Source: an uncultured Planctomycetia bacterium
GTDB lineage: Bacteria; Planctomycetota; MHYJ01; WSZJ01; CAZWCX01
Assembly (NCBI GenBank): GCA_964632945.1
Contig: CAZWCX010000005.1
Location: forward strand, 9,305-73,304
Length of the DNA: 64,000 nucleotides
Reading direction: 5' to 3'
Shown: one piece after another, positions 13,475-41,829 of the stretch
How the letters are laid out: each line of letters opens with the position of its first letter
Position numbering within the stretch: the first letter of the stretch is position 1
Notes under the pieces: model-generated
Seen by the model: the letters and a program-made list of their open reading frames with translations, nothing else
Databases searched by the model: none
What the model was told of the DNA's origin: nothing
Program-made: the position numbers and the translations under genes

Positions 13475-13966
13475 CTAGTGGGTGCTCTTCGCCGCGTCGA
13501 GCGTCGCCCAATTCGCGTCGCTCGCCTGCTTGCTCGCGTCGTTCGCGGCGGGCGCCGGGCCCTTCGTCGTGCGGGTCACCGCCTGCGCAGCCTGCTGGGC
13601 GAGCAACCGCGCCTGCACTCGGGATTGCGCGGACGCCTGTCCGGCCAGTCGGGCCGCCAGGCTCGCCTGCGTGCGACCGATCTCCTCGACGTTCAGCGTC
13701 GAACTTCCGAGATTCGCCGACACGTTCGCGGTGGCGTCCGCCGCCGTGCTGATGCCGCCGCTCGGCACCGGAACGGGCGCATCCACCGGCCCCGCCACCG
13801 CGGGAGCGATCATCATTGCCGAAGCGGCCATCTGCATCTGTTGGGGAGGATTCGGATCCGGGCACCCCGGGTCCACGCCCGGATTTCAGGTAGGCAGGGC
13901 GAGGGCGCCACAGGGGACGAAGGTCAGGAGCGCGAGCAGCGCGAGGGAACCAATCGCCGTCTTCAT
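13475..13966 (-). CDS. Secreted Pro/Ala-rich protein with an in-frame TGA at codon 27 (candidate UGA-recoded or selenoprotein, 163 aa)
   Basis: SD GGGAGGT, ATG 13966, signal peptide MKTAIGSLALLALLTFVPCGALA, then LPT, TGA (13886..13888), then NPGVDPGCPDP continuing in frame into ORF 13475..13876. Confidence 0.7.
13856..13885 (-). other. SECIS-like hairpin immediately 3' of the in-frame TGA
   Basis: A-ATCCGGGC-GTGGACCCGGGGT-GCCCGGAT, an 8-bp perfect stem. An alternative upper stem GGACC-CGG-GGT(G)CC starts 11 nt after the TGA. Folded by eye only. Confidence 0.45.
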
Positions 13967-14033
13967 GGGGAATTTACCTCCCGATGCGGGTAGCTTGGGC
14001 CACAGGTTTGCCGCCTCCTCCCGTCCCATTCTC

Positions 14034-14057
14034 ATGAATGATACAATCGCCATTCAT
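14034..14057. promoter_or_regulatory. Operator-like inverted repeat
   Basis: ATGAATG-N10-CATTCAT overlapping the -10/+1 region of the promoter for the 13966 gene. Confidence 0.45.
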
Positions 14058-14154: not shown

Positions 14155-17100
14155 CTACTTCGCCATCCTTTCCAGGAACTTCTTCCAGCGCGGGTCCCCG
14201 TGCAACGGGGCGAGGTCGGTGTCTTTTTCGGTCTGATCCCGGGTTCGCGCGCTGGGGACGATTTTGCCCGAAGGATCCAGTTCCTTTCCCCAGTTCAATT
14301 CCGCCGCCTTCTCGAGTTCCTCGAAGGCCAGGTCCTGGTAGGCCTTTTTCTGGTCCGCGACGACGGCCGGCCGGGTCTGGGATCCGGCCTTGCCGGCGCT
14401 GGCCTGGGCGTAGACGCAGGCCAGGTTGTAGTGGGAAATCGCGATGCGGGATCCGTTCTCCCGCAGGATCTTCTCCACCTCTTCCGGCGTGCACAGCTTG
14501 AAGTATCCGTACAGTTTGTGGAACGCCTGCTCGAAGGCCTTTTCGGCCTCCAAGTACTTCTGGTTGAGGGTCAGGTCGTTGGCGGCGTCGAGGTCCCTGG
14601 TCAGGGTGGCGCGCTGGAGTCCGGCTTCCAGGCCTTCCATGAGCTTGTCGAGTTCGGGGTTCTCGTGGGGGACGACCGAGCGGTAGCGCCGGAACGCGTG
14701 CAGGGCCTTTTCGGCGCCGCCCATGGCGACGTAGAGCATGCCGAGGCTGTGCCAGGCGTCCTTCACGCCGCGATCGATGGCCTGCTGATAGTGTTCCTGG
14801 GCGCGCGCGTAGTACGAGGAGCGCAGGTCCTGGGGGATGTCGAACCAGAAGGCGAGGGTGCCTTCCGCATTGGCGAGCAGCTTGTAGAGTTCCGCGTCCT
14901 CGGGGAAGTCGGCGAGCGCGGCCTCGCAGTCGGCGCGCATGAGGTCGGCGTACTTGAACTTCTCCGCTTCCTTGCCGGCCTGCGAGTATTGTCCGCTCAT
15001 GCCGGCGAGGCAGCGGATGCGCATGCGGCGGGCGTCCTTGTCGGCGGGGCTGCGGTCGAGCGCGCGCGAGAGGTCGGCGAATCCCTTTTCGAAGGCGGGG
15101 GTGGAATCTTCCTTCTGATCGGCGAGGGCCTGGCCGAGGTCGTGCCAGGCGATGCCGCGGGCGCGGGTGAGGGCGGTGTCGTCCGCCTGCCGTGTCAAGA
15201 GCGTGTCGTACAGCGCGATGGCGCTCCGGTAGGATTCGCGCGCGTCCTTGCCGAGGGCACGCTGCGATTCCGCGACGCGGGACAGGAGGCCGGCGCGGCG
15301 GTCGAGGAGGTCGGCGTCGGCCGCCTGGGGATCGGCCTTGGCGAGTGCCGTGAGCGTTTCCTGCAGCGCCGGAAGCGCGGCCTCCACGCGACCCGCGGCC
15401 AGGTGGAGGTCGGCGAGATCGCTCCAGGAGCGGGCGCGGAAGAGCTCGACCGCTGGGGTCGAGGCGACGTCCTTCCAGGCGGCGAGGGTTTCCTCGAGCA
15501 GGGGGAGGGCGCGATCCGCCGGCGAGCGTCCGGTCTCGAAGAGGAGGCGCGCGGTCCAGCCGCGGACGATGGCGGTTCCCGGGAAGGCGGAGTCCCGCGC
15601 GACCAGGGCATCCAGTTCATCCCGGGTGCGCTGGAAGACGCGGTCGGCCCCTTCGGCGGCGGGTTCGGTGGTCAGGGCGCGTGCGAGGGCGGCGATGAAC
15701 CGGTCGCGGGGGACCGACGGGAGTGCGGAGTGGCGCTTGTGCAGTTCGGCGAGGGCGACGAGGGCTTCCTGGGGACGGCCGTCGTCGAGGGCGAGCCGCG
15801 CGAGCGCCCACCATCCCTCATCCGCGGACTCGACCGCCGCGACGGCCTTCTCGAGGGCCGCGCCGGCCGTGCCGTCGGCCCCGTCGCGGAGCGTCCCCGC
15901 GAGGGCGCGGGACAGTTCCAGGAGCGCGGGTTCCTCCGGCCACGCCTGGATCTTCGCCAGGTCCTCGGCGGCCTGGAGGCGCAGGGCGGTCAGCCCGGCG
16001 TCCGCCTTTTCCCATGCCGCGGAACCGGTCCAAGCCGCGAGCGGACCCGGCGGGTCCTCGAGGAGCCGTTCGGCCGTGACTGCGGCCAGCCGGGCCGCGG
16101 ACAGGCGCTCGGCGTACTCGTCCAGGCGCACGCGCGCGCGTTCGAGCCGGGCGGCGGGGAAGTCGGGATGGGCGGTGAGCAGGGCGTCGAGCGCTGCGAT
16201 CGCCGGGTCGCGTTGACCGGCCCACCGGAACGCCGACGCTTCCAGCACCCGGGCCTCGCGTAGATCCTCGATCTCGAGGGTGCCGCGGACGTGTTCGGTG
16301 ACCCGTTGCAGGCCGGTCGGGAGCGATCGCGCGTCCCCCTGACGCGAGGCCACGACCAGTTGGTTGAAGGCGGCTTGCGCGTCCGCCAGCCGTGCCAGGG
16401 CGCGGTTGCGGCGGTCTTCCGCCTCTTTTTTTCCGGTGAGCGCGGCCTCGAGATACGAGGCGCGCTGTTTGGCCCACTCGGTCTGCATGACGAAGTAGCC
16501 GGCCACCCCGAGCGCGGCCACGACGGCGGCGCCCAGCAGAATCGGGGTGCGCTTGCGCTTCACGAAGCGCTTGATCTTGTAGTCGATCGACGGCGCGTGG
16601 GCGAGGATGTGTTCGCCCTTCATGATGCGCCAGAGGTCTTCCGCCATCTCGCCGGCGGTGGGGTAGCGGCGGTCGGGGTCCTTTTCGAGCGCCTTCATGC
16701 ACAGGATGTCGAGCTGGCGGTCGAGGGTCGGCACGACCGCGCTGGGCTGGCGCGGATCCTCGTTGAGGACGCGCTGGATCAGCTGGATCGTTTCACCCCC
16801 TTCGAGCGGCGGTCGCCCGGTGAGCAATTCGTACAACATCGCCCCGAGGGCGTAGATGTCGCTGCGCGGGCCGACCTTGGACTGGTCGCCGGCCGCCTGC
16901 TCGGGCGCCATGTAGAGCACCGTGCCCAGCGTGGCGCCGGACTTGGTGAGGCGCTGTTCCGATTCGGTGAGGTCCTTGGCGAGCCCGAAGTCGGTGATGA
17001 CCGGCTTCTTCGTCTCGAGGTCGATGAGGATGTTCGCCGGCTTGATGTCGCGGTGGACGATCCCCTGGGAATGGGCGTAGTCCATCGCCCGGCAGATCTC

Positions 17101-18582
17101 GTTGGCGAGCTTGATCGCGACCGCGACCTCGAGCCCGCCCGGGCGGCCGTCGCGCGTGCGCGCGCCCTTGGGGAAGAGGTCGTCCTTGGGGGCGCGCACG
17201 ACCTTGTCGAGCGACTTTCCCTCGACGTAGTCCATGACGAGGTAGGGCGTATCGCCGTACATGCCGATGTCGTACACCGCGACGATGCCGGGGTGGCGCA
17301 GCTTCGCCGACGCCCGTCCTTCGCGCCAGAAGCGCGCCTGCAGGAGGTCGGGGTCGCCGCTGGCGGCCGTGAGGACCTTGATGGCGACATAGCGGTTGAG
17401 CTTGGGGTCGTACGCCTTGTAGACCGCGCCCATTCCCCCCTGGCCGAGCTTCTGGACCAGGTAGTAGTCGGCGAAGCGTTGCCCGGTGGCCTTGATCTGC
17501 TCGATCTGGCGAACGTCCAGGCCGGCGCGCGAGGCGATGGTGGTGACGCCGGCGCGGGAGCGGTCGACGCTGCTGTCCGCCTTCGAGGTCGCGGCGGGAG
17601 AGACCTTGGACACGGCCAGCTGGCTGTCTCCCTTCCGGCTGTCCCCCTTGGGAGAATGGCGGGTCTGGTCGACCGCGGAGCGCGGACCGCCCGCGACCGA
17701 GGGGGCGGCTGCGGCGGCGCCGGGGGGATCCATGACCGTGGGCTCATGGGGGGCGAGCCCCGCGGAGTCCGACTTCTCGGGGACCTTGGGCAGATTGGGC
17801 TGGAAGCCCGAGGGGCGGCGACCCGGCGGGATCGGGGGTGCGGGGGTCCGGGCGACCGGCATCTCCGGCATGGTCATGGCCGCCTGGAAGTTCGGGTCCT
17901 GCGGCGAGGGGTCGGCGGCGGAGGAATCTCCGTGCGGGATCCCGGGGGCCGACGCCGGGGGCGGGGCCCCGGGCATGCCCGGGAAGAGCGGCGCCCGGCG
18001 CGGCGGCGTTCCGCTCGCCGGCATCTCGGCCATCGTCATGGCCGCCTGGAAGTTCGGGTCCTGCGGCGAGGGGTCGGCGGTGGAGGAATCGCCGTGCGGA
18101 ATCCCGGGGGCCGAAGCCGGGGGCGGATCCATGGGCAATCCCGGGAAGAGCGGCGCGCGGCGCGGCGGCGTGCCCGTCGACGGCGCGTCGGCCATCGTCA
18201 TCGCCGCCTGGAAGTCGGGGTCGCCCGGGTCCCCGGCGCGCGCCGGATCCGGCGCGCCCGTCCCGCCGAGCGGACTCGCGTCCGACATCGTCATCGCATC
18301 CTGGAACCCCGGGTCGCTCATCCCCACCGCGAAGTCCGCGCCGGGATCGTCCCCCGCGCGCGGGCCGGGCGTGGGGCCCGAGGGCGCGAAGGAACGGGGC
18401 TTCACATCCGCTTCTTCGACCGTGCGCCCGGACGGCTCGCCTTCCTTCTCCGGGGAAGGCCCGCCGAACAGGACGTCGGGTACCGTCTCATCGGGCCGGC
18501 GTTCTCCCTTACCCGGCGGCGTCGGCGGACGCGTGCCGGCCTTCTCGTCCTTCTTCGGGTTCGTTTCGGATGGTTCCACCAT
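14155..18582 (-). CDS. Ser/Thr protein kinase with long Pro-rich repetitive N-terminus, TM segment and TPR C-terminus
   Basis: GQGGMG, VAIK, HRDIKPANIL, DFG and GTVLYMAPEQ motifs; TM ILLGAAVVAALGVAGYFVM; TPRs. Confidence 0.93.
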   Translation of the reverse strand: MVEPSETNPKKDEKAGTRPPTPPGKGERRPDETVPDVLFGGPSPEKEGEPSGRTVEEADVKPRSFAPSGPTPGPRAGDDPGADFAVGMSDPGFQDAMTMSDASPLGGTGAPDPARAGDPGDPDFQAAMTMADAPSTGTPPRRAPLFPGLPMDPPPASAPGIPHGDSSTADPSPQDPNFQAAMTMAEMPASGTPPRRAPLFPGMPGAPPPASAPGIPHGDSSAADPSPQDPNFQAAMTMPEMPVARTPAPPIPPGRRPSGFQPNLPKVPEKSDSAGLAPHEPTVMDPPGAAAAAPSVAGGPRSAVDQTRHSPKGDSRKGDSQLAVSKVSPAATSKADSSVDRSRAGVTTIASRAGLDVRQIEQIKATGQRFADYYLVQKLGQGGMGAVYKAYDPKLNRYVAIKVLTAASGDPDLLQARFWREGRASAKLRHPGIVAVYDIGMYGDTPYLVMDYVEGKSLDKVVRAPKDDLFPKGARTRDGRPGGLEVAVAIKLANEICRAMDYAHSQGIVHRDIKPANILIDLETKKPVITDFGLAKDLTESEQRLTKSGATLGTVLYMAPEQAAGDQSKVGPRSDIYALGAMLYELLTGRPPLEGGETIQLIQRVLNEDPRQPSAVVPTLDRQLDILCMKALEKDPDRRYPTAGEMAEDLWRIMKGEHILAHAPSIDYKIKRFVKRKRTPILLGAAVVAALGVAGYFVMQTEWAKQRASYLEAALTGKKEAEDRRNRALARLADAQAAFNQLVVASRQGDARSLPTGLQRVTEHVRGTLEIEDLREARVLEASAFRWAGQRDPAIAALDALLTAHPDFPAARLERARVRLDEYAERLSAARLAAVTAERLLEDPPGPLAAWTGSAAWEKADAGLTALRLQAAEDLAKIQAWPEEPALLELSRALAGTLRDGADGTAGAALEKAVAAVESADEGWWALARLALDDGRPQEALVALAELHKRHSALPSVPRDRFIAALARALTTEPAAEGADRVFQRTRDELDALVARDSAFPGTAIVRGWTARLLFETGRSPADRALPLLEETLAAWKDVASTPAVELFRARSWSDLADLHLAAGRVEAALPALQETLTALAKADPQAADADLLDRRAGLLSRVAESQRALGKDARESYRSAIALYDTLLTRQADDTALTRARGIAWHDLGQALADQKEDSTPAFEKGFADLSRALDRSPADKDARRMRIRCLAGMSGQYSQAGKEAEKFKYADLMRADCEAALADFPEDAELYKLLANAEGTLAFWFDIPQDLRSSYYARAQEHYQQAIDRGVKDAWHSLGMLYVAMGGAEKALHAFRRYRSVVPHENPELDKLMEGLEAGLQRATLTRDLDAANDLTLNQKYLEAEKAFEQAFHKLYGYFKLCTPEEVEKILRENGSRIAISHYNLACVYAQASAGKAGSQTRPAVVADQKKAYQDLAFEELEKAAELNWGKELDPSGKIVPSARTRDQTEKDTDLAPLHGDPRWKKFLERMAK
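17869..18315 (-). repeat. 162-nt (54-aa) tandem repeat inside the kinase N-terminus
   Basis: The motif CGCCTGGAAG recurs at 17881, 18043 and 18205 (period 162). DPxFQAAMTM occurs three times at that period, plus a degenerate DPGFQDAMTM copy near 18315. Confidence 0.85.
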
Positions 18583-18603
18583 GGTCTTTCCCCTCTCCGC
18601 GAC

Positions 18604-19356
18604 TCAGTCTTTTCTGCCGCTCCAGTCCACGAGGCGACCGGTTTCCATCTCGACCCCGTCCAGGACTCGGCGCGCCTCGACCCACCAGGGATGGCCCGCC
18701 TTCCATACCTGCGTGGAGACGAGGGGTTTTCCGTTGATCTGGGTCTTGATCTCGACCACGGCGGTCCGCCCGCCATCCGCGTACTTCGTCGTCTGGATGA
18801 ACTCCCGCGTGCCCGTGCCGATCGTGTCGGCCACCGTCTCGTCCGTCCCTTCCCGCGGCAATCGGGGCAGGTCGAGCGGAATCAGCAGCCCGGTGTCGGA
18901 GTGGACGTAGGTCTTGGACGGATTGTCGATGACCGAGGAGGTTTCGCCGTCGTCCGTCTGCTCCATCCGCTTCAGCGTGAGGTTCGAGGAGCGAACGATC
19001 AGCGTGACGCGCTCGGTGTCGAACTGATCGTTCGTCATCTCCAGGACGAAACACCGGTTCCCGTCCAGGGTCTTCATCTCGACCACCTGGAACGTGCAGG
19101 TGACCGTCGTCTTCCGGTCCTTCTCGAGTGTCGGCGGTTTGTTCGGCTGCTTCGGATTGACCCCGGCCATCGGATGGCATTCGATCTTCCACCAGTCCCC
19201 GACGGTCCAGGCGGGGGCGACGGTCATCGGGACCTCGTCTTTGGTCCCCGGCGGAGGCTCATCGCCGGGATCCTCGTCCTGGGCGTGCGACAGGGAGGCG
19301 GCCAGAAAGGCGAGCAACCACGCGAACACGAGTCTGCGCAGACAGAAGACGCGCAT
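18604..19356 (-). CDS. Secreted hypothetical protein (beta-rich)
   Basis: C-terminal part of ORF 18604..20001. Signal peptide MRVFCLRRLVFAWLLAFLAASLSHA, then APAWTVGDWWKI...TFQVVEMKTLDG. Confidence 0.75.
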   Translation of the reverse strand: MRVFCLRRLVFAWLLAFLAASLSHAQDEDPGDEPPPGTKDEVPMTVAPAWTVGDWWKIECHPMAGVNPKQPNKPPTLEKDRKTTVTCTFQVVEMKTLDGNRCFVLEMTNDQFDTERVTLIVRSSNLTLKRMEQTDDGETSSVIDNPSKTYVHSDTGLLIPLDLPRLPREGTDETVADTIGTGTREFIQTTKYADGGRTAVVEIKTQINGKPLVSTQVWKAGHPWWVEARRVLDGVEMETGRLVDWSGRKD

Positions 19357-19510
19357 GACGGCCACTCCGGCAACAGGGTGCGGGACCCCTTCATCATAGG
19401 GGCAGGGGAGGTGGCGGGCAACCCTTTCAGCCGGGCGCGGTTTTCGTTGCGGCCGCCGTCCCCCGGCTGGCACAGTGTCGCGATCGGGGGACACGAGAAC
19501 GGGAGAGGCC

Positions 19511-20413
19511 ATGACCAAGCGGCGGGCGCGGATTGCGGCCCCGGATCCCACCGGAGAGTGGGTGGTGCGCAATGGCCGCTTGCGGACCCACGCCGAGGCC
19601 GCGGTGCGGATCAGCCACCCCGGTTTTCGGATCGGTCTGGGGCTGTTCGAGACGCTCCTGGCGGTCGACGGCCGCGTCGTCGCGGCGGCGGAGCATGTCG
19701 AGCGCATGCGCGCGTCCGCGCGCTGGCTGGGACTCCGCGGGACCCCCGCCGCGCCGGCCGTGCGCCGGGGCGTGGCCGAACTGCACGCGGCATGGCGGTC
19801 CGCCGGCGCCTCGCGCGCCGCACTCCGCTTCCTCCTGGTCCGTCTCTCGCTTTCGCCCGCCTCGATCGATGCCCGCACCGCCGACTGGACCTTGACCGCG
19901 GAGCCGATCGACGCCGCGGCACGCGCGCGCCTGCGCCGCGGCGTCGCCTGCGGGCTGTCCTCCTGGCGGCAGCCGTCCACCCACCCGCTCGTCGCGCACA
20001 AGACCCTCGCCTATCTGGACCGCTGGCTCACCACGCGCGACGCGCGTCGTGAAGGGCACTTCGACGACATCCGGCTCGACGACGAGGGGTGCGTGGCCGA
20101 GGGGAGCCTGTCGTCCGTCTTCGTCGTTGCCGACGGCGTGCTGCGCGCCCCGCCGACCGCGGGCGGAATCCTCCCCGGCGTCACCGCCACGGCCGTCCTG
20201 CGCCTCGCGCGCCGGGCGCGCCTGCGGGTCCGAATCGAACCGATCCCCGCCGGCGACCTCCTCGACGCCGAAGAGATCTTTCTCACCAACTCGACCAAGG
20301 GGGTCGTGCCGGTTCTTCGCCTGGACGGCCGTCGGGTGGGGAAGGGGCGTCCCGGACCGGTCACGCGACGGTTGCAGGGGATGCTCGAACGCGCGCTCAC
20401 GGGCGGCGCGTGA
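19511..20413 (+). CDS. Aminotransferase class IV (ADC lyase / branched-chain aminotransferase family)
   Basis: GLGLFETL, HVERM, HKTL (PLP lysine), VAEGSLSSVF, ILPGVT and EEIFLTNS motifs. Confidence 0.88.
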   Translation: MTKRRARIAAPDPTGEWVVRNGRLRTHAEAAVRISHPGFRIGLGLFETLLAVDGRVVAAAEHVERMRASARWLGLRGTPAAPAVRRGVAELHAAWRSAGASRAALRFLLVRLSLSPASIDARTADWTLTAEPIDAAARARLRRGVACGLSSWRQPSTHPLVAHKTLAYLDRWLTTRDARREGHFDDIRLDDEGCVAEGSLSSVFVVADGVLRAPPTAGGILPGVTATAVLRLARRARLRVRIEPIPAGDLLDAEEIFLTNSTKGVVPVLRLDGRRVGKGRPGPVTRRLQGMLERALTGGA

Positions 20414-28671: not shown

Positions 28672-30282
28672 ATGAAACTCGGCGTGCTCGACCTCGGCAC
28701 CAACTCGATCCACATTCTCATCGCGGAAATCGGCCGGGACATGAGCTTCGAAGTGGTCGGCCGCGCCAAGGACATGACCCGCCTCGGCGACGGCACGCTC
28801 AAAAGCGGATTCATCGCTCGCGACAAGTTCGATCGCGGCATCTCGGTGGTGAAGCACTTCGTCCAATTGGCGCGCAACCGCGGCGTCAGCAAGATCTTCG
28901 GCGTCGCCACCGCGGCCATTCGCGAGGCGTCCAACGGCGGCGAGTTCCTCGACCGCATCCAGCACGAGGCCGAGATCACGGTCCGCACCGTGACCGGGGA
29001 GGAGGAATCGCGCCTCATCTACCTCGCGGTCCGCCACTTCCTCGACCTGTCGGGGAAGCCGTCGTTGATCATCGACATCGGCGGCGGCTCGGCCGAGTTG
29101 ATCGTCGGCACCGACAAGGCGATCCAGTACGCCCGCAGCCTCAAGCTCGGCGGCGCGCGCCTCAAGGACCTCTTCCTCACCGGCTACCCGGTGCCGAAGG
29201 CGGACCACCAGCACATCCACCGCCACCTGCAAGACAGCCTGCGCCACACGCTCGAGGACCTGAAGGGATTCCCCATCCGCCAGGTGATCGCGACGTCCGG
29301 GACCCTGATCAACCTCGGCTCGGTCATCAGCGCCCGCCGCGACGGCGAACCGCTCACCAACCCGCAGGGATTCTCGTTCGAGCGCGACGAACTGGACGAC
29401 CTTCACAAAATCCTGATTCGCAGCGACGAAACCGAACTGGGACAGCTCAAGGGGATCGACCCCAACCGCAAGGACATCCTGCTCCCGGGGGCCTGCCTGA
29501 CCCTGGAGGTGATGGAGGCGCTGGATCTGGACCGCGTGACCCTCTGCGACAAGGCGATCCGCGAGGGAGTGGTGCTCGACTACATCAGCAAGAACGCGCG
29601 CAAGCTCGCGCTCGAGGCCGAAATCCCGAACGTCCGCCCGCGCACGGTCCTCCAGCTCGCGAATCGGTGCGAATACGACGAGCCCCACGCCCGGGAGACG
29701 GCGCGGCTTGCGCTGCAGCTCTACGACCAGCTGCCCCTGCGCAACCTGCGGCCCGGGGCGCGGGAACTGCTCGAGTATGGGGCCTTGCTTCACGACATCG
29801 GCTACCACGTCAGCTTCGAGCAGCACCACAAGCACGGCTGGTACCTGATCAAGAACGGCGAACTCTCCGGATTCGCACCGGAGGAAATCGACATCCTGGC
29901 ATGCATCGCGCGGTACCACCGCAAGCGGGCGCCGCGCAAACGCGACACGGTGATGGCGGCGCTCACGAAGGAGGACAAGCGCACGGTGGAGACGCTCGCC
30001 GCGATCGTGCGCGTCGCCGACGCCCTCGACCGGAGTCACTTCCACGTGGTCGCTTCGCTCAAGGTGCAGATGCGCCCGCGCCAGGTGACGGTGCGGATCA
30101 CCGCCCAGGAGGATCCGGCGATGGAATTGTGGGCGGCGCGCCAGAAGGTGACGTTGCTGGAAAAGGTGCTCGGGCGCCCGGTCACCTTCGAGCTCGACCG
30201 GCGGACGCAGCAATTCGTCGAGCGCCGCGCCGCCGCCGCACAGAAACCCGGGAGCGAGGGGAAGAAGACCTCGCCCGGATGA
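28672..30282 (+). CDS. ppx: Ppx/GppA exopolyphosphatase with HD domain
   Basis: LDLGTNS, ATAAIREASNG, GEEESRL, DIGGGSAE and LLHDIGY..HHKHG motifs. Alternative start 28639. Confidence 0.92.
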   Translation: MKLGVLDLGTNSIHILIAEIGRDMSFEVVGRAKDMTRLGDGTLKSGFIARDKFDRGISVVKHFVQLARNRGVSKIFGVATAAIREASNGGEFLDRIQHEAEITVRTVTGEEESRLIYLAVRHFLDLSGKPSLIIDIGGGSAELIVGTDKAIQYARSLKLGGARLKDLFLTGYPVPKADHQHIHRHLQDSLRHTLEDLKGFPIRQVIATSGTLINLGSVISARRDGEPLTNPQGFSFERDELDDLHKILIRSDETELGQLKGIDPNRKDILLPGACLTLEVMEALDLDRVTLCDKAIREGVVLDYISKNARKLALEAEIPNVRPRTVLQLANRCEYDEPHARETARLALQLYDQLPLRNLRPGARELLEYGALLHDIGYHVSFEQHHKHGWYLIKNGELSGFAPEEIDILACIARYHRKRAPRKRDTVMAALTKEDKRTVETLAAIVRVADALDRSHFHVVASLKVQMRPRQVTVRITAQEDPAMELWAARQKVTLLEKVLGRPVTFELDRRTQQFVERRAAAAQKPGSEGKKTSPG

Positions 30283-35498: not shown

Positions 35499-35768
35499 AT
35501 GAAGCACCTGTTCACACTGGCCGCAGTGCTGGTGCTGGTCGGGACGCTCTTCGTGGGCGTGCCTGCCAGCGTGTTCGGGTGACCCCCGCCTGGGGCCCCG
35601 CCTCCCCCGGACATTACGCCTGGCCCGGGTCCGGTTCCGGATCCGCCGGGGGGAGATGATGATGGTGGTGGTGACGACGATGACGGTGGTGGCGACGACG
35701 ACGACGGCGGCCCGGAGACGCAGGTTGATGACGGGCCCGACGCTGGCGAAGAGCGCTATCTGATGTAA
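35499..35768 (+). CDS. Small secreted Pro/Gly/Asp-rich peptide with an in-frame TGA at codon 28, copy 1 (89 aa if read through)
   Basis: SD GGAGTAGGA, MKHLFTLAAVLVLVGTLFVGVPASVFG, TGA (35580..35582), then PPPGAPPPPDITPGPGPVPDPPGGDDDGGGDDDDGGGDDDDGGPETQVDDGPDAGEERYLM-TAA. Missed by the ORF track. Confidence 0.7.
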
Positions 35769-36688: not shown

Positions 36689-36958
36689 ATGAAGCACCTG
36701 TTCACACTGGCCGCAGTGCTGGTGCTGGTCGGGACGCTCTTCGTGGGCGTGCCTGCCAGCGTGTTCGGGTGACCCCCGCCTGGGGCCCCGCCTCCCCCGG
36801 ACATTACGCCTGGCCCGGGTCCGGTTCCGGATCCGCCGGGGGGAGATGATGATGGTGGTGGTGACGACGATGACGGTGGTGGCGACGACGACGACGGCGG
36901 CCCGGAGACGCAGGTTGATGACGGGCCCGACGCTGGCGAAGAGCGCTATCTGATGTAA
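36689..36958 (+). CDS. Small secreted Pro/Gly/Asp-rich peptide with an in-frame TGA at codon 28, copy 2
   Basis: Identical by eye to 35499..35768. SD AAGGAG. TGA at 36770..36772. Confidence 0.7.
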
Positions 36959-37199: not shown

Positions 37200-39146
37200 A
37201 TGGAGTTGATCCTGAAGAAGGTCAGGGCCATCCAGCGGTGGCTCTTCCTCGTTCGCTTTGGCGAGAACTCGGTACGCCTTCTCTTCTATGCTCTGTGCAT
37301 CTTCTCGCTCCTGGTCCTGCTGGATCGCCTGATCTTCCTCAATGTCGATCTCTACCAGGGCATGGTGATCATGACCGGCACCGCTCTCCTCGGCGCGGCG
37401 GTCTGGGTAGCTCTGTCCCGGATCACCCTCCTGCGTGCCGCCATGGTCGCGGACGAGCAGCTCGGCCTGAAAGAGCGGCTTTCGAGCGCCTTGTCCGTCG
37501 GTCAAGCCGGCACTCCCATGGAGCAGGCCCTGATCCTCGATACCGCCCAGAAGGCGCAGAAGGTGGTCGTCACGCGCACCGCGTCGTTCCGGTTCCCGCG
37601 GGAGTCGCGGTTCTTCTACATCCCCGCGGCCCTCATCGTCCTCTCCCTCATGGTCCTCCCGCCGCTCGACCTCCTGGGTCGGCTCGAGGCCAAGACCATC
37701 AGCGAAGCCAAGAAGGAAGAGGCCAAGAAGGACTCGCTCAAGGTGGAGAAGCGCACCGAGAAGATCAAGAAGCGCCTGGAGGAAAAGAGTCTCCCCGAAC
37801 TCGAGGGCGTGATCAAGAAGCTGGAAGCCCTCTCGGAGGATCTGAAGGCACAGAAGACCGACAAGGTCGACGCAATGGCCAAGCTCTCGAACCTCTCCGA
37901 TGAATTGAAGGATCGTCGCGAGCAGCTCGGGGAGAAGATGGCGGTCAAGCGCGACCTGGAGTCTCTCTCCGGTGAAGAAGGCGAGATGGGCAAACTCGCC
38001 GAGGCCGTCAAGTCGGGGGATTGGGAAGAGGCCAGAGAGCAATTGAAAAACCTCGAGGAGAAGCTCAACAGCGACTCCCTCACGCCCGAGGAGAAGCAGA
38101 AACTCCAGCGGCAGCTTCAGCAACTCGCGAAGTCCCTCAAGAATGATCGCAATCTGGAGCGGCTCGGGAAGTCGCTCGAGAAGCTCGCCGAGCGCATGGA
38201 GAAGGTGCAGGACAAGCTGGGCGAGGAGGATCGCAACTACGCCAGCAAGGCATTCGAAGAACTCGATGAGCAGATGAAGACTCTCGAGGATCTGTCGGAA
38301 GAGGAACTGGAGGAGTTGGAGAAGACCCTCGACGAGCTGGAACAGGCCAAGGACGACCTGACCGAGGAAAACGGCGAGGAAGGCCAGCAGGGCCAAAATG
38401 GCCAGGACGGACAGCAGGGTCAGGAAGGCCAGGAAGGCCAAGAGGGACAGGAAGGTCAGGAAGGCCAGGAAGGCCAGAAGCAGGGCCAGCAGGGCCAGAA
38501 GCAGGGGCAGCAGGGTCAGAAGCAGGGGCAACAGGGTCAGAAAGGCCAACAAGGACAGAAGGGCCAGGAAGGCCAGAAGAAGGGCGGCGACCAGGAGTGC
38601 ATCAATTGCAAGAAGAAGATGAGCCAATCCGGCGGAACCTGAAGTAGCGGCCAGGGCAAGAAGCCCGGGACCTGAAAGGTCCTCGGGGCCTACGGGCTAG
38701 GCCGATCGAAAGCGAACCAGGGTCAAGGCGGCAAGGGCAGCCAGAGCGGCAAGGGTCTGGGATCCGGGGGTCCGGGAACGGGCAAGGGCGGCAAGGTGCC
38801 GGAGAGCGGCAATCGCAATGTCCGATTCGACAAGGAGAAGATCAAGGGGCTCCTGGACAGCAAGGGGGAGATCCTGGGCGGCATCTTCGTAAAGGGCCAG
38901 GCCACCAAGGGCGAGGCCAAGCAGGAGTACGTCGAGGCCTACAAGGCCGAGATTCAGGAATCCACCGACGCGCTCACCAAGGAAGACATTCCTCTCGGTT
39001 ACAAGCAATTCGTCTCGACCTACTTTGACTCGATCGATGGCGCCGGGGAGGATGACTCCGCGGCCGACGAGGGCGCTACACCTCCGTCCGGCGGTTCCCC
39101 CGGGGAGGGGACCAAGCCGACCGAGGGGCAAGGGGGCGGGAAGTAA
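37200..39146 (+). CDS. Membrane-anchored coiled-coil protein of the kind found with MoxR/vWA operons, with two in-frame TGAs (648 aa if read through)
   Basis: ORFs 37200..38642 and 38796..39146 share a frame, interrupted only by TGA 38640..38642 and 38673..38675. N-terminal TMs, coiled coil, GQ repeats, CINC-x10-TGA-x10-TGA, Gly-rich linker, C-terminal ALTKEDIPLGYKQFVSTYFDSI. Confidence 0.75.
38382..38579 (+). repeat. Gly-Gln low-complexity tandem repeats (9- and 21-nt units)
   Basis: GQQGQNGQDGQQGQEGQEGQEGQEGQEGQKQGQQGQKQGQQGQKQGQQGQK... Confidence 0.85.
38654..38666 (+). other. SECIS-like hairpin 11 nt after TGA 38640
   Basis: GGGC-AAGAA-GCCC, extendable by CC/GG past a bulged A. A second hairpin CCCG-GGACC-TGAAA-GGTCC-T-CGGG (38664..38687) holds the next TGA in its loop. 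Confidence 0.4.
38687..38703 (+). other. SECIS-like 17-nt hairpin exactly 11 nt after TGA 38673
   Basis: GGCCTA-CGGGC-TAGGCC, a perfect 6-bp stem with a G-containing loop. Uses codons CTA and CGA, which look rare in this GC-rich context. Confidence 0.6.
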
Positions 39147-39152
39147 CGCAGC

Positions 39153-40214
39153 ATGCATTCTCCCGCTTCCCGGACGGAGCGGCGGCCGCCGCTCTGGATC
39201 CCCGCCGTGGTCGTCGCCCTGTTCGGCCTGGGATGGCTCCTGCTCCTTGCCGGCCATCGTTCCGGGCAGTGGATCGGCCGCGTGGTCGTCTACACCAGCC
39301 TGGACGAGCTCTACTCCGAGCCGATCCTGCGCGAATTCGAGCGCCGCACTTCGGTCCGGGTCGACGTCGTCTATGACAGCGAGGCAACCAAGACGGTCGG
39401 GCTGGCCAACCGGATCCTGTTCGAGCGCCGGAACCCGCGGGCGGACGTGTTCTGGAATTCGGAAATCCTGCACACGATCCGATTGCAGGCCGAAGGGGCG
39501 TTCGAGGCGTATTCCAGCCCGTCGGCCCAGGACATTCCCGCCGAATTCCGGGATCCTGGCGGCGTGTGGACCGGCTTCGCCGCGCGCGCGAGGGTCATCG
39601 GCGCGTACAAGGACGTGCTCACGAAGCAGGGCTATCCGCCGCGAGGCATCGAGGAACTGGTCCACGCGCGTTTCCGGGACCGCATCGGCATCGCCTCGCC
39701 CTTTTTCGGGACCACGGCGACGCACATGGCCGCGCTCTGTCAGGCCCTGGGGAAGAGTCAGACGGTAGCGCTGCTGCAGAAACTGAAGAATCATGGCCTG
39801 CGCGTGTATCCCGGCAATGGCCCGGTCGCCGATGCGGTGGCACGGGGCGAGATCCTGGCCGGGCTCACCGACACCGACGACGTGGCCATTCGCAAGCAGG
39901 CCGGGAAGCCGGTGTTCGCGATCTACCCGGACGCGATGGGGATGGGAACGCTGGTCATCCCGAACACGGTGGCCCTGGTGAAGGGCGGACCGAATCCGGA
40001 GTTCGGTCGGATGCTGATCGACTTCCTGCTTTCGCGCCAGGTCGAAGAGAAGCTGGCCCGCGCACGCGGGCGCCAAATGCCGGTCCGGGACCTCCCGGTT
40101 CCCGAGGGGGACATGACCCTCTCGCAGATCCGGCCGATGAAGGTCGATTGGTCCACCCTGCCGCGGCACTTCGACGAAATCCTGCCCGAGTTGAAGCGGC
40201 TGTTCATGGATTAG
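39153..40214 (+). CDS. ABC transporter substrate-binding protein (Fe3+/thiamine-type cluster D family)
   Basis: VVVYTSLD, PRADVFW, WTGFAARARVI, GLTDTDD and LVIPNTVALVKG motifs. Confidence 0.88.
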   Translation: MHSPASRTERRPPLWIPAVVVALFGLGWLLLLAGHRSGQWIGRVVVYTSLDELYSEPILREFERRTSVRVDVVYDSEATKTVGLANRILFERRNPRADVFWNSEILHTIRLQAEGAFEAYSSPSAQDIPAEFRDPGGVWTGFAARARVIGAYKDVLTKQGYPPRGIEELVHARFRDRIGIASPFFGTTATHMAALCQALGKSQTVALLQKLKNHGLRVYPGNGPVADAVARGEILAGLTDTDDVAIRKQAGKPVFAIYPDAMGMGTLVIPNTVALVKGGPNPEFGRMLIDFLLSRQVEEKLARARGRQMPVRDLPVPEGDMTLSQIRPMKVDWSTLPRHFDEILPELKRLFMD

Positions 40215-40245
40215 CAGGGGCGGTCCGCGCCTCAGGAGGTGGCGG

Positions 40246-41829
40246 GTGCCTCGCCGGGTCGTCGTCCCCGCCGCCGCGATCGCGATTCTCCTCCTCGCGC
40301 TGCTTCCCCTGCTTTGGGTCTACCTCCTGCCCTGGGTCGACGCGGGCGGGGGCGGAGCGTTCCTCCGCGCGCTCCAGGAACCGCTTCGCTGGACCCTTGC
40401 CGCCCGCAGTCTGGCCGTGGCCGGCCTGGCGGCGACGGCGGCGACGGCGATCGGCCTGGCGGTCGGGCTGGCCCCGTCGCTTCCGGCAGGGAGACCGCGC
40501 ACGGTCTGGGCCGCCCTCGCGCTGCTTCCGCTCGCCCTTCCCCCGTACGTCTCGGCGGTCGGATGGATCGGCCTCTGCTCCGGCGAGGGCGGAATCGGGC
40601 GGATCCTGTCGTGGCTCGGATTCGGGCCACCGGACGTTTTTCTGAGGTCGGTCGTCGGGTGCGCCTGGGTGCATGCCCTGGCCTTCTGGCCCTGCGTCGC
40701 GCTGCTGGTGCGCGCGGCGCGGCTCGCGCTCGACCCGGCGGTCGAAGAGGCCGCGCGGCTGCACCTCTCGCCGGGCCGTGCGTGGCGGCGGGTCCTGCTT
40801 CCGGCGGTCGCCCGCGAGGCGCGGGCCGGGGCGGCGATCGTCTTCGTCCTTTCGCTGGCCGACTTCTCGGTGCCGTCGGTCCTGCAGGTCAACGTGTTCG
40901 CCCTCGAGGTCTTCACCCGCTTCGAGCAGAACTACGATCACGTCGCGGCCGCGGCCCTGTCCTTCCCCGTCCTGATCGCCGTCGCGGTGGCGATTTTCCT
41001 CGAGCGCCGCTGGGCGGGCGTCGCGGATCGAGCCTTCTCGCCGCAGGCGCGCCCCTTCGACTCCCCGGCGAGCGGACGGGCCTGGATCGCCCTGGGCCTG
41101 CCCCTGACGCTGGCGGTCGGCATCCCGGTCCTGCAGTTGCTCGTCGATGCCGGCGCCCCCGACGCGTACGTGCGCGTCCTCCTGGTTGCGGGTCGGCCAC
41201 TCGGAAACACCCTGCTGCTCGGATTCGCGGGTGCGCTCTGGGTCGGGCTGGCCGGACTGGTCCTGGCACTGTTGGTCCGCGGCGGGGCCCGCTGGCTCGA
41301 GGGCCCCGCCACCGCCGCCCTGGCGGCCTCGTTCGCGCTTCCCGCCGCGCTCGTCGGCATCGGATTGGCCCTGGTGTGGAATCGGCCCGGCCTCCCCGGA
41401 CTCGTCTACGGGAGCCCGGCCATCCTGCTCCTGGCCTACCTCGCCCGCTTCCTGCTGGTGCCGTTCCGGCTCGTCTGCGGCGGACTCGCATCCGACGAAC
41501 TGGGCGCTGCCCTCGACGCCGCCCGGCTCCACGGCCTGCCGCCGGCCGTCACCCTTTTCCGCGTGGTCCTGCCGTCGCTCACGGAGCACCTTCGCGCCGC
41601 TTCCCTCGCACTCTACGTTTTCATCGTCGGAGAGTTGGCCACCGTCGTGCTGGTCCAGCCCCCGGGATGGGACACCGTGCCGGTGCGCATCTTCCAATTG
41701 GTGCACTACGGGTACGAACGCGAGGTCGCCGCGCTTTGTGTGGTGCTGCTGGTCGCCGTGGTCGTTCCCGTCGCCGTGGCGTGGACCGCGTTCGATTCGG
41801 CCCGCTTGCATCCGCGCAAAGCCCTCTGA
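40246..41829 (+). CDS. ABC transporter permease with two fused TM domains (FbpB-like)
   Basis: About 12 TMs with two EAA loops (VEEAARLHLSP; ALDAARLHGLP). Confidence 0.88.
   Translation: MPRRVVVPAAAIAILLLALLPLLWVYLLPWVDAGGGGAFLRALQEPLRWTLAARSLAVAGLAATAATAIGLAVGLAPSLPAGRPRTVWAALALLPLALPPYVSAVGWIGLCSGEGGIGRILSWLGFGPPDVFLRSVVGCAWVHALAFWPCVALLVRAARLALDPAVEEAARLHLSPGRAWRRVLLPAVAREARAGAAIVFVLSLADFSVPSVLQVNVFALEVFTRFEQNYDHVAAAALSFPVLIAVAVAIFLERRWAGVADRAFSPQARPFDSPASGRAWIALGLPLTLAVGIPVLQLLVDAGAPDAYVRVLLVAGRPLGNTLLLGFAGALWVGLAGLVLALLVRGGARWLEGPATAALAASFALPAALVGIGLALVWNRPGLPGLVYGSPAILLLAYLARFLLVPFRLVCGGLASDELGAALDAARLHGLPPAVTLFRVVLPSLTEHLRAASLALYVFIVGELATVVLVQPPGWDTVPVRIFQLVHYGYEREVAALCVVLLVAVVVPVAVAWTAFDSARLHPRKAL

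Follow-up and report, generated by a model that had tools for sequence, protein, structure and literature searches.

Does a reading frame that is interrupted twice by TGA within 33 nucleotides (nt) encode two proteins or one, and, in the latter case, which amino acid is inserted at the two stop codons? This question is raised by a gene at positions 37200-39146 of a 64,000-nt stretch of contig CAZWCX010000005.1 from an uncultured Planctomycetia bacterium; the whole stretch is referred to here as the window. A single frame of 648 codons runs through the locus on the forward strand, its only interruptions being TGA 38640 (TGA 1, or UGA-1 in the mRNA) and TGA 38673 (TGA 2, UGA-2), and the upstream open reading frame (ORF) 37200..38642 shares its frame with both. 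Comparison with related sequences leads us to favor one membrane-anchored coiled-coil selenoprotein, which would carry two selenocysteine (Sec) residues specified by tandem selenocysteine insertion sequence (SECIS) elements, and we assign this interpretation a probability of about 0.72. The read-through product would contain the motif C467-I-N-C470-x10-U481-x10-U492, in which U denotes a candidate Sec. A preliminary description of the locus had proposed that alternative RNA structures let one mRNA recode both UGAs. Both are indeed very probably recoded within one mRNA; the hairpin which that description regarded as a competitor is, however, the better candidate for the SECIS of UGA-1.

The C-terminal fragment, and subsequently a profile built from fragments of this kind, served as queries for relatives; genome and metagenome collections were scanned and contigs fetched. 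The profile search returned 51 short C-terminal fragments of the family, and ten lineages could be read as DNA (the L001 group, L003/L004, L005/L011, L017, L009, L015, L010, L020, L018 and L021). In all ten of them the N-terminal ORF is terminated by TGA, never by TAA or TAG, and the C-terminal ORF always follows in the same frame. Three positions of a single cluster alternate between TGA and Cys codons (see the motifs in Table 1). Site 1, the position of TGA 1, is TGC in L003/L004 with conserved flanks, the CPS-U of L021 corresponds to CPSC in L009, P0004 and P0077, and in full-length homologues a Cys of a 'Gx-C-[KQ]GG' or CxxC motif occupies a comparable position. An alignment of site 2, the position of TGA 2, with the Cys of distant homologues (P0006, 'GxCQGG' type) is plausible, but falls in low-complexity sequence. 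An in-frame TGA, homologues with Cys at the TGA and orthologues with TGA are among the criteria used in the field for bacterial selenoprotein genes, for example in deep-Sep (PMC12013277). At this locus we find conserved coding sequence on both sides of the TGA, aligned Cys homologues and TGA orthologues, the latter in 10 of 10 lineages. Since the exchange of TGA and Cys within one cluster is the standard signature of Sec, recoding as Sec is favored.

Constraint on the RNA itself was evaluated by comparing the gene with that of the L001 group. Over the entire gene, 188 of 457 codons for identical residues differ synonymously (41%). For residues 480-501, which comprise the TGA/hairpin segment, only one of 20 codons does, making this the lowest window of the gene, and the sole change (CTC to CTT) lies outside every stem. 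With the two TGAs left out, our own binomial estimate for this deficit is ~1e-3 before correction for about 44 overlapping windows. The same segment holds the only CTA codon of the gene. CTA accounts for one of the 76 Leu codons here and for one of 486 in seven neighboring genes. The preliminary description had called both CTA and CGA codons atypical, which is correct for CTA; CGA is merely mildly rare (5-7% of Arg codons). Because the synonymous sites are frozen and the only CTA codon is located within a hairpin, namely the one termed H2 below, the segment has to be regarded, on comparative grounds, as constrained at the RNA level.

H2 is the hairpin that follows TGA 2. It is identical in the L001 group, while in L003 the replacement of Leu-CTA by Val-GTA together with a change of GGG to GGC converts it into GGCCUAC-GGC-GUAGGCC, with a longer stem and the loop core kept. 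Differing stems of 6-9 base pairs (bp), with GGC, GGU, CGGGC or CGGGA as loop at a distance of 17-27 nt, are found in the window and L003, in L005 and L017, and in L009, L015 and L018 (Table 1). L010, L020 and L021 have weak hairpins of 4-5 bp only; in both L010 and L020 the loop is AGUU, 19 nt from the UGA, and their stems differ by a G-C to A-U exchange. Because of the frozen synonymous sites, the sole CTA codon and the equivalent GG-loop stems in other lineages, H2 is probably the SECIS of UGA-2, provided that Sec decoding is real. In these respects the 17-nt hairpin behaves like a real bacterial SECIS, as had been proposed in the preliminary description.

For UGA-1 the assignment is less straightforward. 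The model of bacterial SECIS elements (bSECIS; Zhang & Gladyshev, restated in PMC13188914) requires an apical loop of 3-9 nt, an upper stem of 4-16 bp, a G in the first two loop positions, 16-37 nt between UGA and loop, and a folding energy of -7.5 kcal/mol or lower. No single hairpin is found within the 16-37 nt range of both UGAs, the loop of H2 being 17 nt away from UGA-2 and 50 nt from UGA-1. The model is fitted by H2 with respect to UGA-2 and by a second hairpin, H1b, with respect to UGA-1. TGA 2 itself contributes the closing U and the first two loop bases of H1b. The core of H1b, ACCU-GAA-AGGU in the window and L001, becomes GGCU-GAA-AGCC in L005 and L017, so that pairing is retained although amino-acid substitutions (T to G, V to P) alter both arms. 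In L005 and L017, H1b has an additional outer stem of 7 bp, and the two lineages differ there by a C-G to U-G change. Around the UGA, stems reach at most 7, 7, 7 and 8 bp in the four two-TGA lineages, compared to 3 and 3 bp in L003 and L009, where site 1 is Cys. H1b is hence seen only where site 1 is TGA (four of four two-TGA lineages, none of the two with Cys), and this pattern of presence and absence suggests a link between H1b and UGA-1. As far as sequences can tell, and if Sec decoding is real, the chances that H1b is the SECIS of UGA-1 are about even.

The preliminary description had instead paired UGA-1 with the smaller hairpin GGGC-AAGAA-GCCC (H1a). In that case both UGAs could encode Sec, but H1b would not be the sole element for UGA-1: H1a would take its place or form an alternative fold to it. 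H1a starts 11 nt after UGA-1, like the minimal E. coli fdhF element, which Liu et al. reportedly described in 1998 as a 17-nt upper stem-loop at this distance from the UGA. It is conserved in the window and in L001, where the loop AGCAA has a G in second place, and an extension, CCAGGGC..GCCCGGG, yields -9.0 kcal/mol and overlaps H1b. However, of two lineages with TGA at site 1, L005 retains only 3 bp of H1a and L017 lacks it, and its strongest version, with 6 bp (UCGGGC-AACAA-GCCCGG), belongs to L003, which has a Cys codon at that site. Moreover, in the window it does not fit the bSECIS model, as there is no G in the first two loop positions and the loop starts 15 nt after the UGA. The conserved G-x-K-P-G codons explain its pairing; H1a is probably incidental, and we consider its service as a SECIS for UGA-1 unlikely. 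Conservation of the stems, which the preliminary description had named as a check, is divided: the structure of the site-2 hairpin is kept despite sequence changes, while H1a is weakened in L005 and lost in L017. All hairpins and both 11-nt spacings of that description are present, including the stem that places the second TGA in a loop (GGACC 38668-72 / TGAAA 38673-77 / GGTCC 38678-82). Its nested arrangement is to be replaced by a tandem one, with elements at 38667-38683 and then 38687-38703.

Table 1. Features of the read-through gene in window coordinates, followed by Cys/Sec motifs and site-2 hairpins of related lineages (U in motifs, candidate Sec; hairpins written as RNA)
Feature	Coordinates	Strand	Description
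Read-through coding sequence	37200..39146	+	648 residues, stop TAA 39144-39146; homologues of 560-690 residues are unbroken over the region
C-I-N-C (Cys467, Cys470)	38598..38609	+	first half of the Cys/Sec cluster; CxxC kept in relatives as CINC, CITC, CQKC, CPSC, CPDC, CPYC
TGA 1, site 1	38640..38642	+	residue 481, candidate Sec, context GGT-U; TGA in window, L001, L005, L017; TGC (Cys) at the aligned position in L003/L004
Spacer, TGA 1 to H1a	38643-38653	+	11 nt, AGTAGCGGCCA
H1a	38654..38666	+	GGGC 38654-57 / AAGAA 38658-62 / GCCC 38663-66; -5.8 kcal/mol
H1b, candidate SECIS for TGA 1	38664..38687	+	GGGACCU-GAA-AGGUCCU, 38667-38683, -9.0 kcal/mol; 6-7 bp upper stem 38667-38673 / 38677-38683; apical loop GAA 38674-38676, starting 31 nt after TGA 1; optional lower stem CCCG/CGGG with bulged U
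TGA 2, site 2	38673..38675	+	residue 492, candidate Sec; TGA in window, L001, L003/L004, L005, L017, L009
Spacer, TGA 2 to H2	38676-38686	+	11 nt, AAGGTCCTCGG
40 codons from TGA 2 to first possible restart (GTG 38796)	38676..38795	+	contain the family-wide stretch G-x-G-M-G-G-P-G-x-G-x-G-G
Alternative hairpin	38677..38691	+	AGGUCC-UCG-GGGCCU, -6.8 kcal/mol; overlaps H1b and H2, mutually exclusive with each
H2, candidate SECIS for TGA 2	38687..38703	+	GGCCUA-CGGGC-UAGGCC (GGCCTA 38687-92 / CGGGC 38693-97 / TAGGCC 38698-38703), 17 nt, -7.9 kcal/mol; 6-bp stem; starts 11 nt after UGA, loop starts 17 nt after UGA
CTA, only CTA codon of the gene	38697..38699	+	loop/3'-arm junction of H2
Motif, window			CINC-x10-U-x10-U
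Motif, L001 group			CINC-x10-U-x10-U; 68% protein identity to the window by BLASTP
Motif, L005/L011			CQKC-x10-U-x11-U
Motif, L017			CQKC-x10-U-x11-U
Motif, L003/L004			CITC-x10-C(TGC)-x11-U
Motif, L009			CPSC-x10-C-x8-U
Motif, L015			CPDC-x8-C-x8-U
Motif, L018			CPYC-x28-U
Motif, L021			CPS-U-x16-CGKC
Motif, L010 and L020			C-x4-U
Hairpin, L005			GGGCCAA-GGU-UUGGCCC, loop 24 nt after UGA
Hairpin, L017			CGGGCCAA-GGU-UUGGCCCG, 24 nt
Hairpin, L009			GAAACGGCC-GGC-GGCCGUUUU, 18 nt
Hairpin, L015			CCAGCCC-GGC-GGGCUGG, 27 nt
Hairpin, L018			GGCCGCU-CGGGA-AGCGGCC, 19 nt

If the TGAs were true stops, the locus would instead encode a membrane-anchored coiled-coil protein of 480 residues and a separate C-terminal protein of ~116-156 residues, and the hairpins would be by-products of Gly- and GC-rich coding. 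Gene callers divide the gene in this way in every lineage, the L010/L020 clade has an ATG or TTG 3-9 codons after the TGA, and the folding energy of the region is unremarkable. However, the called 'restart' is found at a different, non-homologous position each time, and in the window the GMGGPG motif lies upstream of every possible restart. The longer GMGGPGxGxGG stretch is conserved in full-length homologues, and the indels between lineages in this segment of the gene are all multiples of three. Since this conserved family stretch precedes the first restart codon, the 40 codons after TGA 2 must be translated. Independent genes would share a frame about one-third of the time, compared to the ten of ten lineages in which it is kept here. 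The invariable TGA at the break, the Cys codon that replaces it in L003/L004, the CPS-U of L021 versus CPSC, and the freezing of synonymous sites exactly at the TGA/hairpin segment speak likewise against two genes, and we therefore regard a split gene as improbable. TGA serves as an ordinary stop for other genes in the window, e.g. Ppx/GppA at 30282, and the genetic code is therefore not reassigned.

The UGAs might also be read without Sec, that is, by a near-cognate tRNA (Trp, Cys or Arg) at low efficiency and perhaps aided by the hairpins, such that short and long forms of the protein are made. The kept frame and the downstream conservation require nothing beyond readthrough and thus agree with this possibility. 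The exchange of TGA and Cys at three positions of the Cys cluster is, in contrast, the classic signature of Sec, and the hairpins share the G-G/U loop and the spacing of SelB-type SECIS elements, which renders such readthrough very improbable. A pseudogene or sequencing artefact, conceivable with two stops 33 nt apart in a repetitive low-complexity region that may assemble poorly, is effectively refuted, as the TGAs also occur in relatives at 68% protein identity and beyond, frameshifts and further stops are absent, and two sequencing runs of a bioreactor metagenome, one on DNA and the other metatranscriptomic, yield contigs identical to 38400-39097 and 38400-39132, so that the TGAs are not assembly errors and both are located on one molecule.

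Several results weigh against a selenoprotein with two SECIS elements. First, the folding energy of the segment is inconspicuous: RNAfold yields -34.2 kcal/mol for 38630-38720 compared to -32.0 ± 3.7 kcal/mol for dinucleotide shuffles (z = -0.60). When codons were redrawn from each gene's own usage in seven lineages with the protein kept, the 48 nt after each TGA gave p = 0.07 for site 1 and p = 0.81 for site 2, and six relatives are equally unremarkable (p = 0.07-0.99 over sites and lineages). The preliminary description had set out precisely such shuffled and codon-preserving controls as a touchstone, and formally the outcome counts against its hairpins; the test has little power in Gly-rich DNA with ~65% GC locally. 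Second, 96 of 200 random TGA triplets in the window (48%) pass the bSECIS model, and a fit to it therefore means little, so that we used the model for a membership check only. When a stem of 6 bp or more, a loop of 3-5 nt beginning with (N)G[G/U] and a spacing of 16-37 nt are demanded, five of seven independent lineages pass after the site-2 or single UGA, compared to 5% of random TGA triplets in the window. As this stricter test was set after the data had been seen, the figures overstate the significance, although they point clearly in one direction. A hairpin of this kind is present in 2-3% of arbitrary 17-nt spans and is missing after the Cys codons of L003 (site 1) and L009. Under synonymous recoding, the chance of obtaining one is 0.05 in the window, 0.22 in L005, 0.07 in L009 and 0.43 in L015. 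The hairpins do not occupy homologous alignment columns, so that any alignment for formal covariation counting would be fitted to the structure.

Third, the stem around UGA-2, i.e. H1b, is not rare given the protein sequence (P = 0.16-0.30 under synonymous recoding, not significant), because the pairing is mostly set by the amino acids. The case for H1b amounts to two independent two-TGA clades versus two lineages with Cys at site 1, and the outer stem in L005 and L017 closes a loop of 11 nt, where the model allows 9 nt. Fourth, the region around the Sec sites is of low complexity and poorly conserved, and in many homologues it contains no Cys at all. The Sec/Cys residues therefore do not form a universal active site, and such a setting is unusual for the active site of a selenoprotein. 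The L010/L020 clade moreover has no clean Cys partner, and an ATG (often) or TTG follows its TGA within 3-9 codons. Finally, the 64-kb window contains no tRNA-Sec, a motif scan of it gave no SelB-like translation-GTPase motif, and an AlphaFold2 model of the C-terminal 192 residues, based on 12 aligned sequences, has a mean predicted local distance difference test score (pLDDT) of 50.7 and is unusable. Complete Sec machinery is present in some Planctomycetes (PMC4807772), a lead rather than support for the present case.

Apart from its family, the spacing of its UGAs and the position of UGA-2 inside the first element, the locus resembles an ordinary bacterial selenoprotein gene with an intragenic SECIS, of which fdhF is the prototype. 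Like them, it has an in-frame UGA, homologues with Cys at the same position, and a stem-loop within the coding region directly after the UGA; the apical loop is small, includes a G that precedes G or U, and lies 16-37 nt from the UGA. Elements of the fdhF type have a bulged U and G-U in the loop. H2 resembles them in its 17 nt and its 11-nt spacing in the window, L001 and L003, but is devoid of the bulged U and has CGGGC or GGC as loop; in the other lineages the base of the hairpin lies 9-20 nt from the UGA. Unlike in those genes, two UGAs lie 33 nt apart, each needing an element of its own, the second UGA is part of the loop of the first element, and Sec would be located in a low-complexity linker instead of a thioredoxin-like active site.

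Bacterial proteins with two to three Sec residues have been catalogued, for example the UxxU metal-binding protein (NF041115), the FmdB-family UxxU protein, TsoB with UxxxxU (NF045694), MbdU and ferredoxin-thioredoxin reductase (PMC13188914, Table 1 therein). The present protein would share with them more than one Sec per polypeptide, and in several of them Sec likewise belongs to Cys-cluster or metal-binding motifs. In the catalogued UxxU and UxxxxU proteins, however, the UGAs are 9-15 nt apart, such that one SECIS could presumably reach both, compared to 33-36 nt here. A further likeness is to the dual CXXC motif small protein (NF041197) and to the DnaJ-type CxxCxGxG motif, as four Cys-type ligands are arranged in two pairs inside a Gly-rich span of ~25 residues; Cys-form homologues such as P0013, P0025 and P0044 read CxxCxGxG-x6-CxxCxGxG. 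In contrast to such motifs, the second pair is U-x10-U, there is no profile match, the cluster is predicted to lie outside the cytoplasm, and many family members do not possess the motif. Nothing resembling the family is found among the 119 prokaryotic selenoprotein families and subfamilies catalogued in 2026 (PMC13188914), most of which have NCBIfam or Pfam models.

The tandem arrangement permits a conceivable order of events during translation. With UGA-1 in the A site the ribosome would pause, and H1b, 24 nt downstream and outside the mRNA channel, would still be intact. As SECIS-1, H1b could present SelB with Sec-tRNA to UGA-1. Subsequent elongation would melt H1b and thereby move UGA-2 from its loop into the A site. 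H2, the putative SECIS-2, would then be positioned 11 nt downstream at the channel entrance and could recruit a second SelB complex.

The 648-residue protein has a basic N-terminus and three N-terminal membrane helices (residues 27-45, 54-72 and 138-156), followed by a long coiled coil and a low-complexity stretch rich in G and Q. The Cys/Sec motif comes next, and the protein is completed by a conserved C-terminal domain that includes ..KGEILGGIFVKG.. and terminates in ..EDIPLGYKQFVSTYFDSI. According to the positive-inside rule, residues 157-648, and with them the Sec cluster, are predicted to be periplasmic or otherwise outside the cytoplasm. In view of this location, a redox-active thiol/selenol or metal-binding site appears more likely than a cytoplasmic zinc finger. 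The read-through protein has 259 homologues, of which the best 120 are listed, mostly with 560-690 residues and from Planctomycetota, Phycisphaerae and unclassified metagenome-assembled genomes. No Pfam domain is recorded for any of more than 120 homologues, and no family of Pfam or NCBIfam reaches its cut-off with the read-through protein, its N-terminal half or its C-terminal half. Likewise, no NCBIfam selenoprotein model matches the read-through protein, a PDB profile search gave no solved relative, and Rfam gave no RNA family. The G/Q-rich repeat (GQEGQE / GQQGQK; 38400-38580, forward strand) has weak collagen-like profile matches, and its copy number varies between otherwise identical relatives, with 468 versus 482 residues before the first TGA in L001 versus L006/L007.

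If confirmed, the two-Sec selenoprotein would represent an uncatalogued family that is mis-annotated wherever it is present, because every gene caller splits it. Its traits would be unusual for a selenoprotein: it would be membrane-anchored and probably face the periplasm, with Sec in a low-complexity linker and Sec and Cys swapping at three positions of the cluster. The gene would also offer a natural test bed for the recoding of two UGAs that are too distant for one SECIS and too close for independent elements, and the alternation of TGA and TGC between lineages with and without H1b would amount to a ready-made mutational series. A far-reaching and rather doubtful extension would combine two ideas, the first bacterial coupled SECIS pair and an exported selenium-based redox or metal-handling system that includes neighboring peptides. 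In the coupled pair, the melting of SECIS-1 may time both the folding of SECIS-2 and the second SelB delivery, with the third hairpin (38677-38691) excluding either. The exported system could comprise the 'signal peptide-U-PPPG' peptides treated below and could be confined to Planctomycetota and allied uncultured lineages, Sec shifting between three positions of the cluster.

In the window, the gene has as neighbors the genes for an ABC-F ATPase and for an ABC substrate-binding protein, as well as a small peptide gene that is present twice. The substrate-binding protein gene lies 3' of the homologue in the window (39153-41829), L003, L005, L016 and L017. In L018 (2881-5384), the homologue is located upstream of an NHL-repeat gene and a large VWA/GATase1-like gene, a setting of the MoxR/vWA type that does not hold for the window, so that the context differs between lineages. 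Among the family members themselves, a large clade from unclassified bacteria (P0127-P0165) consists of C-terminal fragments beginning with MGSQLAEQIAQLK.. or MAAQIAAIQQ.. and has the motif C-x4-TGA. The two members read as DNA (L010 3983, L020 2489) are in frame, with the hairpin GGCC/CAGCC-AGUU-GGCC/GGCUG 19 nt downstream.

The two small peptide genes (35500-35768 and 36690-36958, forward strand) are near-identical. In each of them a signal peptide ending in ..SVFG is followed by TGA (35580 and 36770, respectively) and 61 in-frame codons with PPPGAPPPP.. and GDDD repeats. The same gene is also present upstream of the L006 homologue (L006 759-1040), with TGA and frame kept and in-frame indels. 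The gene looks like a second candidate for an exported selenoprotein; we treat its in-frame TGA, in the window and in L006, as a lead only and not as support for the two-Sec selenoprotein. A simple scan of these genes found no hairpin with a G early in the loop, while a long conserved hairpin (CUGGGGCC...GGUUCCGG) is present. On the reverse strand, an ORF at 13475-14053 encodes a signal peptide (..LALPT), has an in-frame TGA at 13886-13888 and continues with NPGVDPGCP...; the loop of a hairpin, CCGGG-GUG-CCCGG, lies 20 nt past this TGA. Including this ORF, the window has three secreted proteins in which a TGA comes right behind the signal peptide. Also on the reverse strand, at 14155-20001, two ORFs of 468 and 1482 codons with high GC content at third codon positions share one frame and are joined by a single TGA near 18604; the 1482-codon ORF is Ser/Thr-kinase/TPR-like, and the in-frame junction may reflect chance adjacency.

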